Shown here one piece after another: positions 24,811 through 46,225 of a DNA stretch of 64,000 nt; positions within the stretch are counted from its first letter, which is position 1; the number at the start of each line of letters is the position of its first letter. The notes beneath the pieces are model-generated. The model was not told the DNA's origin. It saw only the letters and a program-made list of their open reading frames with translations, and made no database searches. Source of the stretch: Squalus acanthias (lineage: Eukaryota); assembly GCA_030390025.1 (NCBI GenBank), contig JASTWF010000034.1, positions 3,596,001-3,660,000 on the forward strand, given 5' to 3'. The position numbers and the translations under genes were made by a program.

Positions 24811-24901
24811 ATGGATTGGGATGAAGTGTTTAGGATATTAGGAATATGTTATGATATACAAAATATGTACTATCCCCTCCTCACTGCTGTTGGTGCTCCC
24901 A
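24811..24901 (+). CDS. GPR139/GPR142-like GPCR, coding exon 1
   Basis: MDWDEVFRILGICYDIQNMYYPLLTAVGAP followed by a|gtaagg (phase-1 donor); YYPxLxxVGxP is the first half of TM1 and is in phase with the acceptor at 36557. Confidence 0.8.
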
Positions 24902-25229
24902 GTAAGGATCTATGTCCAGTTATTAATTCTACAAACCATGTCACACTGTAACATTATTCTTGCTATTTACACTGGGATATTCAGTTATTAGTGGAATTCT
25001 GTGTTTCAAGTTGTTGCATCTTTGCTAACGCATGGGTTGTTGTTGAAAAATACTGGAACATCCTCGCTACTGTTGGTGTTCCTGGGAAGTCTCACTATCC
25101 AGCTATTAATTCTGTAAATCATGTTTAACAGCATTACTATTCTTGTAATTTACTCCCCCAAGACACCGCCTTGCTGCTGTTGGTGTTGCTGCAAAATCTC
25201 TATATCCATCTATTAATTCTGTAGACCAT
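24875..25229 (+). repeat. Three degenerate tandem copies of the GPCR exon-1 end plus intron start
   Basis: ctgctgttggtg...tattaattct...catg repeated at about 24880, 25060 and 25170. Confidence 0.75.
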
Positions 25230-36557: not shown

Positions 36558-37459
36558 TGAACATAGTGACGATTGTGATCCTATCTCGGGGAAAGTGCGG
36601 ACTCTCCAAATGTGTCACTCGCTACCTGGTGGCCATGGCAGCGGCGGATCTACTGGTCGTTATCTTCGACCTGATATTGAGGCACATTCCGATTGTTTAT
36701 TGGGAACAGTTTGATTTCGTGTATTCCATCCGCGTGTGTAATATCCACGCCGTCTTGCTGTTCGCAGCCACAGACTGTTCTGTCTGGTTCACCGTCACTT
36801 TCACCTTTGATCGATTTGTGGCCATTTGTTGCCAGAAGCTGAAAACTAAATATTGCACCGAAAAAACGGCGGCTGTGGTTCTGGGAACAGTGACTGTGCT
36901 GAGCGGTTTAAAAAACATCACCTGGTATTTTATGTTCACAGATCGGTATTGGCTTACGAACAGCCCCTGGTTTTGTGAGGTCCCAATGGATGTTCGGTAT
37001 TCACGGGTCTGGGGAACAATCGAGTTCCTACATTTTATTCTCACCCCATGTGTCCCATTCGTGGTGATTCTGCTGCTCAATGCAGTCACCGTCAGATACA
37101 TTTTAGTGGCCAGCAGAGCCCGCAGGAGACTCCGGGGTCCCAGCAGTGGGGAGAGTCCCAGAGACCCAGAGATGGAGAGCCGCAGGAAATCCATCATTTT
37201 ACTGCTTGTTATCTCGGGCAATTTCATCCTGTTATGGGCAGTGTTTATGGTGTTTTCTATATGGAGCCGGATGTGGTGGTTGGGGTACAAGTCTGTATTT
37301 CTACCTGATTATGTAATGGAACTGGGATTCATGTTGCAGCTGCTGAGTTGCTGTACAAACACTGGGATTTACGGTCTGACCCAGACTCAGTTCAGAGAGC
37401 AGCTGAAAAATGTGGGGAAGTATCCCTTTACTGTCATTGTCAAATTAATTAAAGGATGA
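36558..37459 (+). CDS. GPR139/GPR142-like class A GPCR, coding exon 2 (TM1 end to TM7)
   Basis: Pyrimidine tract plus cag|tg aac; open 300-codon frame with NIVTIVIL, AMAAADL, FTFDRFVAIC, PFVVILLLN, FILLW and CCTNTGIY; spliced product about 330 aa. Confidence 0.92.
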
Positions 37460-37514: not shown

Positions 37515-39186
37515 TGGCGCCCCGCACAAAGATGGCGGCTCCTGCGAAGCGCAAAAAGATGGCGGCTCTGGGGCCATGCACAAAGATTGCGGCTCTGGTG
37601 GTTCCGCAAAAAAGATGGAGGCTCTGGTGCCCTTCAAAAAGATGGCGGCTCCTGCGCCGCGCAAATAGATGGCGGCTCTGGTGCCACGCATAAAAATTGC
37701 GACTCCGGGGCCCCGCACAAATATGGCGGCTCCTGTGCCCCACGTAAGGATGGCAGCGCTGGGGCCCAGCACAATGCTGGCGGCTCCAGGGCCAGGCACA
37801 AAAATGGCGGCTTTGGCGGCCCGCACAAAAATGGCGGATCTGGGGCCTCGCACAAAGATGGAGGCTCCAGCATCCCGCTAAAATGGCGGCTCTGGGGACC
37901 AGCACAAAAAGAATCACCTCTGGGGGCTCCGCACAATGATAGCGGCTCCAGTGCCCCGCGTAAAGATGGCGGCTATCGGGCCCAGAACAAAGTTGGCGGC
38001 TCCGTGGATACGCACAAAGATGGAGGCTCTGGTGGACCCGCACAAAGATGGCGGCTCCTGCGCTACGCACAAAGATGGCGGCTCCTGCGCTGTGCACAAA
38101 GATGGTGGCTCTGGGGGCCCCGCACAAAGCTGGCACCACTGGGGTGCGCACAATGATGGCGTCTCTGGGGCCTCGCACAAAGATGGCGTCTCTGTTGGCC
38201 CGGCACAAAAATGCGGCTCCTCCGCCGCGCACAAATATGGCAGTTCTGGGGCCCCGCACAAAGATGGCGGCTCCGGCGCTCGCACAAAGATAGAGGCTCC
38301 GGAGCCCTTCACAAAGATTGCGTCTCCTGCGCCGTGCACAAAATGTCTGCTCTGGGGCCCCGCACAAAGATGGCAACTCTGGTACTTCGAACAAAGCTGG
38401 CGGCTCTGGGGGTCGCACAAAGATGGCGCCTCTGGGGCCTCGCACAAAGATGGCGGCTCTGGGGCCCCGCATAAAAATGGATACTCTGGCATCTCCGCAC
38501 AAAGAAGAAGCCTCCGGGGCTCCGCACAAAGATGGCTGCTCCTGCACCGCGCACAAAAATGGTGTCTCTGGGGCCACGGACAATGCTGGCGGCTCTGGGA
38601 CCCAGCAGAAATATTGTGGCTCTTGTGCCTTGCACACAGATGGCAGCTCTGTGGCCACGCACAAAGATGGCGGCACACGTTGCCCCACACAAAGATGGCG
38701 GCTCTGGTGCCCTGCACATAGATGGCGGCTCTGGGGACACGCAAAATGATGGCGGCTCCCGGGCCCCACACTAAGATTGTGGCTCTGGTGCCTTGCACAA
38801 AGATGGCGCCTCCGGGGCCCCACACAAAGTTGGCGGCTCTGTGGGCCCCACACAAAGATGGAGGCACTGGGGGCCCCGCACCTAGATGGCGGCTGCTGCA
38901 CTACGCACAAATATGGCGGCTCAGGGGCCCTGCACAACGATTGCGGCTCTGGGGCCCTGCACATTGATGGTGGCTCTGGCGCCCCGCCATACATGGCGAC
39001 TCCGTGGCGACGCACAAAGGTGGCTGCTCTGGGGATTCGCACAAAGATGGCGGCTCCGGTGCCCCGCACAAAAATGGCGGCTCCAGGGCCAGGCATAAAG
39101 ATGGCGGCTCCGGCGCCCCGCACAAAAATGGCGGCTCAGGAGCCCCGCTCAAAATGACGGCTCTGCGGCACCGCACAAAGATGGCT
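37515..39186. repeat. 26-28-bp GC-rich tandem array, about 60 units, with a YY1-consensus core
   Basis: Unit gccccgcacaAAGATGGCGGCtctggg with variants such as AAAATGGCGGC. Confidence 0.92.
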
Positions 39187-39480
39187 TCTCTCTCTCATTC
39201 GGGGTCTTTAACTGGCCCGCGGGAGGCCGCCATTGAGGTATTTCGTTCCCATGAGCGAGCCCGGGGAATGGCGGCGTGAGGCGAGCGTCCGGAGGGCAGC
39301 AGCGGGAGGCCCGGTTACCGTGGGGGCGAGCGATTGGCAGCAGCCCGGCCCGGGGAGGAGGAAGCCCGGCAACAGGCCGGGGGCCCGCCCGCCCGCAGCT
39401 CACTGTCTGCCGGCCTCGCTCCGCGTTAGCGCCACTCTGCCCGGAATGGGATGAGCAATGGCCTGTCCCTGTTTCAGTCC
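39187..39480 (+). promoter_or_regulatory. CpG-rich putative promoter/non-coding first exon of the downstream ZNF gene
   Basis: CpG-dense; GCCGCCATT followed by gag|gtattt (donor at 39238). Confidence 0.45.
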
Positions 39481-39494
39481 TGCAAATGTTTATG

Positions 39495-39818
39495 TACATA
39501 AGAACATAAGAAATAGAAGCAGGAGTAGGCCATTTGGCCCTTCGAGCCTGCTCCGCCATTCAATAAGATCATGGCTGATCTTCGACTTCATCTCCACTTT
39601 CCTGACCTATCCCCATATCCCTTGATTCCCTTAATACTCAAAAATCTATCGATCTCTGTCTTGAATATACTCAAAGACTGAGCCTCCCCAGCGTTCTGGA
39701 GTAGAGAATTCGAAAGATTCACTGCACTCTGAGTGAAGAAATGTCTCCTCATTTCAGTCCTAAATGGCCGACCCCTTATTCTGAGACTGTGACCCCTGGT
39801 TCTACATTCCCCAGCCAG
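39495..39818 (-). mobile_element. CR1 3' end fragment
   Basis: acataagaacataagaaatag tail and RT-terminal sequence. Confidence 0.85.
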
Positions 39819-40320: not shown

Positions 40321-40929
40321 GAATCCTAGAATGAAACAGCTGATCCACTTGGCACTGCAGTGTCTGAAACTCAGAATAGAAATTCCAGGAAAACCCAATA
40401 CTGACAAATGTTAAACTGTTTCATTGACAAAAGAAATATCGATTTAACTTTTAAAAGAGAAACCGTTTAACAGGGGTTCACAATGACTCACCTGACTGGC
40501 CGACTCAAGCACCGCGATTGGTTGAGGACCATGCTGCTCCCTTGGCTCTCCGGCCTCTGAACTCTCTTCCTGTTGGTTCCCAGGCCAATCGATCACCGCT
40601 CGCCAACATTACGCTGCCAGATGAGCTTTAGGGGCTCAGAGGAAGAAAGGAAATGAGACCTTGAATCTGAGTTGGGAAATACAATTAGAGAAACATGATC
40701 CAATGCACAAACTGAACTATTTTAAATCAATTCAATTGAATTGTTGCAATTAATATCTGCCTTTTGAGCCAAGTGGGAAACAAGTGATGTCTGGGTTGTG
40801 CAGGAGTGTTTGCGCCCGGTTACACTGCGTGTTCCTGAATCTACACCAAGTGTGCTTCTTTCAGCTCAAGTTCTCATTCACACACATCCAACTGATGGAT
40901 TAACCTCGACCTTCTAAACCCATTACAGA

Positions 40930-41400
40930 AAGTATCAGCTTTGGGTGTTTAGTTATGCTAAACATTTAAGAAACACTGGTTAAGCCTCAGCTGGAGAATT
41001 GTGTTGAATTCTGGGCGCCACACATTAGAGGGTGCAGAGGAGATTTACTAGAATGGTACCAGGGATGAGGGACTTTGGTTGTGTGGAGAGACTGGAGAAG
41101 CTGGTCTTGTTCTCCTTATGGCAGAGAAGGTAAAGAGGAGATTTAACAGAGGAGTAAATAAGGAGAAACGGTTTCCAGTGGCAGAAGGGTCGGTAACACG
41201 GATTTAAGGTGATTGGCAAAAGAACCAGAGGCGAGATGAGGAAGCATATTTTTGCACAGCATGTTATGATGATCTGGAATGCACTGTCTGAAAGGATGGT
41301 GGGAGCAGATTCAATAGAAGCTGCCAAAAGGGAATTGGATAAATACTTGAAGGGGGAAAAAAGATGGCTATGGGGACAGAGCAGGGGAGGAATTGGATAA
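40930..41400 (+). mobile_element. CR1 3' fragment
   Basis: TLVxPQLExCVxFW and WNALSERMV. Confidence 0.8.
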
Positions 41401-41414
41401 TTCTACCATAGAGG

Positions 41415-42210
41415 CGGACAGTGTAGAGCGAGCTTTACCCGGTACCTAATCCATGTTGTACCTGCCCTGGGAGAGTTTCATGGGACGGTGTAGAGGGAGC
41501 TTTACTCTGTATATAACCCGTGCTGTACCTGCCCGGGGAGTGTTTGATGGGACAGTGTAGAGGGAGCTTTACTTTGTATCTAACCCGTGCTGTACCTGCC
41601 CTGGGAGAGTTTGATGGGACGGTGTAGAGGGAGCTTTACTCTGTATCTTACCCGTGCTGTACCTGCCCTGGGAGTGTTTGATGGGACAGTGTACAGGGAG
41701 CTTTACTCTGTAGCTAACCCGTGCTGTACCTGCCCTGGGAGTGTTTGATGGTCATGATGCGGAGATGTATCTAACCTGTGCTGTACCTGCCCTGGGAGTG
41801 TTTGATGGGACAGTGTAGAGGGAGCTTTACTCTGTATCTAACCCGTGCTGTTCCTGCCCTGGGATTGTTTGATGGGACAGTGTAGAGGAAGCTTTACTCT
41901 CTATTAAACCCGTGCTGTACCTGCCCTGGGAGTGTTTGATGGGGACAGTGTTAAGGCAGCTTTACTCTGTATCTAGCCCTTGCTATACCAGCCCTGGGAG
42001 TGTTTGATGGGGACAGTGTAGAGGCAGCTTTACTCTGTATCTAGCCCGTGCTGTACCTGCCCTGCGAGTGTTTGATGGGTCAGTGTAGAGGGAGTTTTAC
42101 TTTGTATCTAACCCGTGCTGTAACTTCCCAGGAATGTTTGATGGGACAATTTCGAGGGAGCTTTACTCTGTATCTAACCCATGCTGTACCTGCCTTGGGA
42201 GTGTTTGATG
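41415..42210. repeat. 67-bp tandem repeat, about 12 copies
   Basis: Unit gtgtagagggagctttactctgtatctaacccgtgctgtacctgccctgggagtgtttgatgggaca. Confidence 0.95.

Positions 42211-43525: not shown

Positions 43526-46225
<2,700 letters not shown>

Follow-up and report, generated by a model that had tools for sequence, protein, structure and literature searches.

The stretch of DNA analysed here, called the window throughout, spans 64,000 nucleotides of the shark Squalus acanthias and contains a tandem array whose YY1 words all point in one direction. The array lies between a GPR139-like receptor gene and a small CpG patch, within a cluster of receptor and zinc-finger genes. This arrangement raises the question of whether the array is a control element or a repeat in which YY1 words have simply been multiplied. 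An initial annotation of the DNA proposed that a promoter YY1 site had been amplified into a methylation-sensitive switch or boundary element. That proposal is not supported, as conservation in the unit is at most weakly shaped like a YY1 site, the unit is multi-copy, and the retention of CpG is equalled by control sequences. The array is best read as an old multi-copy minisatellite, probably a passenger that YY1 could bind if unmethylated and neither a switch nor a boundary.

A 27-bp minisatellite carrying YY1 words

The array occupies positions 37515 to 39190 on the forward strand and is made up of about 62 head-to-tail units of a degenerate 27-bp minisatellite, 1.7 kb in all. It begins 55 bp past the receptor stop codon, which ends at 37459, and this is the distance originally given. 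Minisatellites are arrays of head-to-tail units of 10 to 100 bp, and the unit size returned by Tandem Repeats Finder falls within this range (37515-39185, period 27, 61.8 copies, 70% matches, 2% indels). Splitting the array yields 61 full units and a last partial one. Forty-four of the full units are 27 bp long, seven are 26 bp, seven are 28 bp, two are 29 bp, and one is 25 bp. The consensus is identical to the unit at 38442-38468. Structurally, the unit consists of a conserved block in columns 1 to 18, which holds a YY1 12-mer at columns 5 to 16, followed by a spacer in columns 19 to 27 that comes in two to three types.

Identity is 82.6% between units and consensus and 71.2% between units compared in pairs. 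It stays level between units across lags 1 to 15 (0.704-0.724), no lag standing out, and exact repeats within the array do not exceed 26 bp. There is no gradient along the array (rho -0.006), and no duplicated block within it stands out from 300 shuffles (p=0.39). Mismatches per unit are Poisson-like (mean 2.16, variance 2.24), and 25 intact cores are observed where 25.7 would be expected under independent decay of the columns. On these measures the array is best described as old, with homogenising having ceased. A hypervariable VNTR was rejected as a description, since recent homogenisation or near-identical neighbouring units are not seen at an identity of 0.70-0.72. The 81-bp higher-order repeat that Tandem Repeats Finder gives as a period is supported neither by the lag identities nor by autocorrelation of the spacer types.

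The array contains 68 C>A and G>T changes versus 69 transitions. A high share of such changes is common also to the 24-, 30- and 33-bp arrays of the window and is thus not special to the 27-bp array. Changes of the C>A and G>T kind roughly match or exceed transitions in the window's tandem arrays (11780, 37515, 55981 and 56520); transposon tails, in contrast, have 134 transitions and 49 C>A or G>T transversions. No canonical G-quadruplex pattern is present on either strand of the array, the array has no Rfam match to E=1, and no solitary full-length copy of the unit occurs elsewhere in the 64-kb window.

The word AANATGGCGGC is found 19 times in the window, where 0.08 occurrences are expected and a count this high is reached by none of 100 shuffles; 18 of these lie within the array, all on the forward strand. 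The exact words of the initial annotation, AA[GA]ATGGCGGC, are present in 16 of 61 units and AANATGGC in 25 of 61, while AANATGG is present in 32 and lost from 29. The published YY1 motif, as given in the part of its source available to us, is aanATGGcg or cgCCATntt, for which we allowed at most one mismatch in the lower-case positions (PMC2665242). By this definition the array holds 38 sites on the forward strand and none on the reverse, and the other 62 kb of the window hold 18. The unit does hold the vertebrate YY1 consensus, as had been proposed, and always in one orientation. The count of some 60 YY1-consensus units was right about the array, which is real and has about 62 units, but overstated the consensus, given 16 units with the exact words and 38 motif sites. 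About half of the units are predicted to be sequences that YY1 could still bind. Their single orientation is given automatically by head-to-tail tandem growth. A published rule defines a cluster by at least three cgCCATntt motifs per 500 bp, as stated in the same part of that source (PMC2665242), and the array, with 38 sites in 1.68 kb, lies far above this density. An ordinary CpG island at 53828-54311 reaches it as well, and so the rule is not specific.

Conservation of the unit and retention of CpG

The initial annotation proposed a comparison of core with spacer as a check, and at face value the core is indeed the better conserved. Across all 61 units the YY1 12-mer has 91/729 mismatches versus 147/541 in the spacer. 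When two spacer types are fitted to the 44 gap-free units, the figures are 67/528 (12.7%) for the 12-mer versus 89/396 (22.5%) for the spacer (p=1e-4), and the same comparison in G and C columns alone gives 45/308 versus 54/264 (p=0.08). However, the motif is kept no better than the non-motif columns that adjoin it. Outside the 12-mer, the remaining six columns of the block together carry 37/264 mismatches (14.0%), which does not differ from the 67/528 of the 12-mer (p=0.66), and the invariant ATGG has 22/243 versus 56/549 in block columns outside the 9-bp motif (p=0.70). On this evidence, the conserved portion appears to be the 18-bp block as a whole and not the YY1 motif.

The excess of mismatches in the spacer is not an artefact of alignment or anchoring, since neutral simulations from one ancestor never reach the observed spacer value of 27% (0/150). 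A neutral model with two spacer types reaches this value in 91 of 150 runs, the second type having been assigned to 32% of units in the simulation, versus 6 of 44 real units that fully fit that type. With three fitted types the spacer still stands at 19% versus 13% for the block. Mixed ancestral spacer types can, in such models, explain the spacer excess. There is also a weak tilt in the shape of YY1, suggested by two features of the block. Of the block columns, the free N position varies the most (15/59 versus 46/304 for other G, p=0.06), a result reached in 4 to 7 of 150 simulations, and ATGG is preserved as well in just 10 to 17 of 150. The variability of the N position could also be explained by extension of the A run.

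The ratio of observed to expected CpG is 0.71 in the array, 0.87 at 39190-39470, and 0.50 in the window. The core CpG is retained in 40 of 61 units and has become TG or CA in 11. At the core CpG, transitions amount to 11/122, compared with 26/485 for the remaining C and G positions (p=0.14), and changes of C>A or G>T reach the same 11/122. This pattern fits an unmethylated germ-line state. Methylation bears on binding here, as YY1 needs CCATNTT and CpG methylation blocks its binding in vitro, according to the portion of PMC1904287 available, and vertebrate-type methylation is described for a cartilaginous fish in the available text of PMC5437953. Consensus CpGs in four transposon-tail families of the window served as a control, and these likewise have no excess of transitions (10/131 versus 134/1668). 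The control, which is consensus-based and non-coding, favours CpGs that have survived, and another two families were too low in copy number to be used. Given the absence of an excess in the tails together with this bias, CpG retention is not diagnostic of germ-line methylation. The remark that CpGs are largely retained needs qualifying for the core, where about two thirds of units keep the CpG, and the control tails match this retention. Pairwise decay of CpG in LINE coding copies was dropped as a methylated control because it is confounded by coding constraint.

Neighbouring genes and further copies of the unit

The receptor upstream is an intact two-exon gene. Its first coding exon lies at 24811-24901 on the forward strand (located by tblastn of homologues, donor GTAAGG) and its second, on the same strand, at 36558-37459 (a shark GPR139-like class A receptor; Pfam 7tm_1, E=2e-19); joined in frame, the two give 330 codons and one stop. 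Among 4,130 candidates, 2,598 homologues score at E<=1e-30, and the 120 homologues listed are without exception shark 'probable G-protein coupled receptor 139'. The statement that no AATAAA lies between the stop and the array is borne out, with none between 37300 and 43600. An ATTAAA on the forward strand at 37448-37453, a putative poly(A) signal, overlaps the last receptor codons, so that placing the array in the receptor 3' UTR is not forced; the following ATTAAA is located at 41903. At the start of the 11.6-kb intron, the end of exon 1 and its donor region recur by eye as two decayed copies (about 25060-25090 and 25170-25200, within 24900-25200).

On its other side the array adjoins a CpG-rich patch at 39190-39470 (281 bp, GC 0.705, CpG observed/expected 0.87), a candidate promoter that is near single-copy and has no second copy in the window. 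The patch contains GCCGCCATT at 39226-39234 and candidate donors at 39238 and 39276. Of the CpG-rich segment with an opposite-strand GCCGCCATT and a splice donor that was first described, the patch, the word and the GT are all present. The word, which is followed by GA, nevertheless fails the published YY1 motif (0 sites in 39190-39500), and the donor GAG/GTATTT, with its GT at 39238, is weak, being a poor match to the usual donor consensus. The name of CpG-island ZNF promoter likewise fits only in that a CpG-rich patch adjoins the array, as the zinc-finger acceptor (about 43526) is 4.3 kb off and its gene is damaged. The patch is truncated by a high-copy LINE 3' tail on the reverse strand (39497-39815), which we take to be of CR1 type and which has seven copies in the window, a depth in the millions and loose ends.

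Farther along, the reverse strand carries a multi-copy segment (40386-41000) that points towards the array and is also a candidate promoter; it contains CCAAT words and, at 40491, the strong donor CAG/GTGAGT. Its copies are about 85% alike, and a given place is covered by up to about 20 different contigs in sequencing runs X1, X6 and X9, which are described below. It has the look of a promoter plus first exon conserved in a gene family, no gene body being seen here. The C2H2 zinc-finger last exon at 43526-45160 on the forward strand is damaged. A stop at 44907-44909 falls inside finger DNA, a LINE insertion lies at the end, the initial finger repeats are out of frame, and a LINE piece is inserted at about 44060-44128. 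From 43635 to 44909 the reading is open for 424 codons from an ATG, and the inserted LINE piece restores the finger frame. A second C2H2 zinc-finger last exon, at about 55130 on the same strand, has several stops and frame changes. The CpG island before this second exon (53800-54350) served as a comparator. It has four YY1-motif sites on both strands and no array, and YY1 words are thus ordinary promoter parts here. The island is a better promoter candidate than the array-side patch. GC boxes and a GCGCATGCGC word, presumably of NRF1 type, also lie within it. Near the end of the window, 62304-63500 contains a CpG-rich repeat (observed/expected about 0.95, GC 0.66-0.68) that recurs at a spacing of 558 bp and is 93% identical over 300 nt; repeats of 57, 71 and 112 bp come after it, and there is no Rfam match at gathering score. 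The region is perhaps the edge of a young macrosatellite or of a tandem gene spacer.

Contigs from 4 of 24 sequencing runs were compared at 80% likeness, the best run sharing 0.35 of the words of the stretch. In X1, contigs matching the array locus have a depth of 104 for an array piece and 49 for the CpG patch (97.7%, record 6), and a 207-nt stretch of the array is collinear at 99.5% with one difference. Nine of the 15 joints shown for this run, out of 1,096, are contigs with units in a different order, at depths of 364 to 1,181. X6 has one joint of another order at a depth of 586, and X9 has, among the matches listed, an array-like contig at a depth of 1,188. Depth summed in 11 array bins, which is no copy number, is 3,620-191,809 in X1, 541-2,253 in X6, and 56-647 in X9; the bin of the CpG patch gives 734, 275 and 38, with about two contigs seen. 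These contigs indicate that further copies of the 27-bp unit family exist in three related organisms, at many loci or in one large array. The extra copies appear to be mostly unjoined to the CpG patch, which is itself near single-copy. The idea of a locus-specific element falls with the copies in other orders in X1 and X6 and the high-depth array contig in X9; the contigs of related organisms point to a multi-copy family and not to a single locus of the Peg3 type. Record 21 of X6 matches 39174-39553 at about 83%, taking in the last unit, the CpG patch and the junction between patch and LINE, and the arrangement is therefore old; 982 letters upstream are unaligned in the piece listed. Run X20, which we guess to be RNA, has paralogous receptor contigs and low-depth array-like contigs; among the contigs listed none runs across the stop and the array, and the listing says nothing on the receptor 3' UTR.

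Competing explanations and known systems

The history that we consider probable would begin with a 27-bp unit that already carried the YY1 consensus in two or three spacer variants. Slippage or unequal exchange would then have amplified it head to tail. Independent point changes have since altered the 18-bp block, about 12% at each site, and to a similar degree within the YY1 word and around it. In an unmethylated region YY1 would be expected to occupy some of the 32 to 38 sites that remain, going by the biochemistry of mammalian YY1, and such binding would be a by-product with little or no selected effect. Alternatively, the array may have been co-opted as a promoter-proximal platform. Here a region of about 2 kb would be unmethylated, with many YY1 molecules bound on both alleles, and would help to initiate or maintain transcription, either from the patch or from the 40.4-40.6 kb segment, selection acting on the total number of sites. 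The 38 qualifying sites set beside a rule of three per 500 bp would agree with such a role, as would a block kept better than a spacer whose types differ while the block does not, the lack of a CpG transition excess, and the junction with the CpG patch retained in X6. Selection on site number would also give a weak per-column signal, as is seen, and the Peg3 sites function as an activator in the experiments covered by our portion of PMC2615030. We nevertheless regard this role as unlikely, as clear conservation specific to YY1 is absent, AANATGG is lost in 29 of 61 units, the nearest zinc-finger gene is damaged, the patch is near single-copy when the unit is not, and the control transposon tails are likewise free of a CpG excess. 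A locus-specific, methylation-sensitive switch or boundary like the control regions of Peg3, Gnas and Xist, with allele-specific or bistable methylation, is very improbable. It would draw on the in vitro block of YY1 by CpG methylation (PMC1904287) and on vertebrate-type methylation in a cartilaginous fish (PMC5437953), in the parts of these sources noted above, and Peg3 too is placed within a zinc-finger cluster with its sites in tandem repeats by the available text of PMC4196374. The unit, however, is not locus-specific and lacks clear motif-specific conservation. In assays the YY1 sites of Peg3 behaved as an activator that depends on orientation and did not account for the enhancer blocking (PMC2615030, in part), which weakens the boundary idea, and imprinting in animals is reported only for therian mammals (PMC9937046, in part).

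The array could also have been carried as cargo, either as the central repeat of a Helentron/HINE-like non-autonomous DNA transposon or as LINE-1-like 5' UTR monomers, the rest having decayed; the YY1 sites would then serve the element. The multi-copy nature of the unit is in line with this, and an independent family with shared flanks, described below, has arrays of this word that also run one way. In oyster, Helentrons have dispersed arrays resembling satellites (PMC7492417, in part), and mammalian L1s start with CAAGATGGC, some with tandem monomers (PMC5381506, in part). Yet we think it quite unlikely, because none of the 25 longest inverted pairs, out of 42, encloses the array as a terminal inverted repeat would, no target-site duplication is seen by eye, the array is bordered by near single-copy DNA on the right and by the 3' end of the receptor on the left, and no open frame for a transposon protein lies downstream; the L1 source, in the portion available, has no shark data (PMC5381506). 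The marks of a HINE or MITE, namely shared flanks, inverted repeats and target-site duplication, are lacking among the pairs shown. Those of LINE-1 5' UTR monomers are lacking too, with no ORF1 or ORF2 frame of at least 120 aa following and the CpG patch present in few contigs. Finally, it is scarcely credible that the array works as RNA in the receptor 3' UTR or as a coding repeat of nine residues, even though AATAAA is absent from the stop to 43600, the period of 27 is divisible by three, and 44 of 61 units measure exactly 27 bp. The other 17 units differ in length, positions that would be third in a codon are among the best-kept columns, and the minus-strand frame has no related protein among the candidates scored (0/8,000). 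The plus-strand frame has one match among 1.84 billion, which is unrelated by eye; there is no Rfam match to E=1, and ATTAAA overlaps the last codons.

In layout the locus resembles the Peg3-DMR of placental mammals, with tandem-repeat YY1 consensus beside a CpG-rich region, a zinc-finger neighbourhood, and a density above the cluster rule (PMC4196374, PMC2615030 and PMC2665242, each in part). Peg3 has about 10 YY1 sites in tandem repeats within 2.5 kb of intron 1, according to the part of PMC4196374 at hand. The shark array has 38 in 1.7 kb, five times more per kb. Peg3 is a single imprinted locus with demonstrated binding and function, whereas the shark array is multi-copy, known from sequence alone, and keeps its motif no better than the flanks of that motif. 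The Cg_HINE Helentron arrays are similar in being short tandem arrays in more than one genomic copy (PMC7492417, in part). A sense-strand AAGATGGCG word heading a CpG-rich stretch, and tandem monomers, recall the LINE-1 5' UTR, but L1 monomers are 70-650 bp versus 27 bp here, no ORF1 or ORF2 lies downstream, and the CpG patch is near single-copy (PMC5381506, in part). Human HSat3 (PMC11526998) and YY1 on DXZ4 (PMC3287207) are, in the portions of these sources available, further cases in which tandem DNA multiplies the motif of a factor and may be bound when accessible. These are megabase arrays or arrays of 3-kb units with binding shown, in contrast to a decayed 1.7-kb minisatellite.

As a passenger minisatellite the array is of small importance, yet it is a caution for the reading of motifs, as tandem growth is enough to produce unidirectional YY1 words next to a CpG island, and such an array is no sign of an imprinting-like element. 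No description of the 27-bp shark repeat was found in the literature searched, with subscription journals and Repbase outside its scope, and the family may be undescribed. It is a long shot that this is an old shark YY1-minisatellite family under selection, with unmethylated platforms of 30 to 40 sites at CpG patches in receptor and zinc-finger clusters; such platforms may hold promoters open or tether the genes of a cluster. In this reading the 18-bp block may be a composite site, as ACAAAG within it resembles a SOX word. If this were true, Peg3-type arrays would have a forerunner outside mammals that is not imprinted, and together with the repeat family described next the platforms would suggest repeated selection for YY1-word arrays in the repeats of distant animals. 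If binding and function were shown, the locus would become a test of the role of tandem YY1 arrays in promoters or clusters before mammalian imprinting.

That family came from a scan of metagenome contigs for two YY1 words 14 to 18 bases apart, which was chosen by motif, had no shuffled-motif control, and returned at least 118 stretches. Viral contigs gave no match to the 18-bp block; the generic two-word pattern gave 13 loci there with one match each, none of them similar to the shark array by blastn. Of 130 loci fetched from the metagenome and viral scans, 66 are one dispersed repeat of about 0.4-1 kb with shared flanks and unique DNA beyond. These loci (L016-L128) hold one-way arrays of 2 to 20 alternating 28- and 32-bp units built on the YY1 word. 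They resemble the shark array in having the same 11-bp word in one orientation, two spacer types, and N as the least conserved core column (0.77). They differ from it, as do Helentrons, in that the shark array showed neither flanking modules shared between copies nor the ends of an element, and blastn at E<=1e-3 finds no similarity between it and any of the 130 loci. Being chosen by motif and lacking a control, the scan shows only that one-way arrays of YY1 words arise in ordinary repeats. One example is L046:4600-5600, which has a central one-way array, as do 65 further loci. A second repeat type, in L019, L045, L059 and L074, carries the YY1 word in palindromic pairs, which recur every 295 bp or so in L074.
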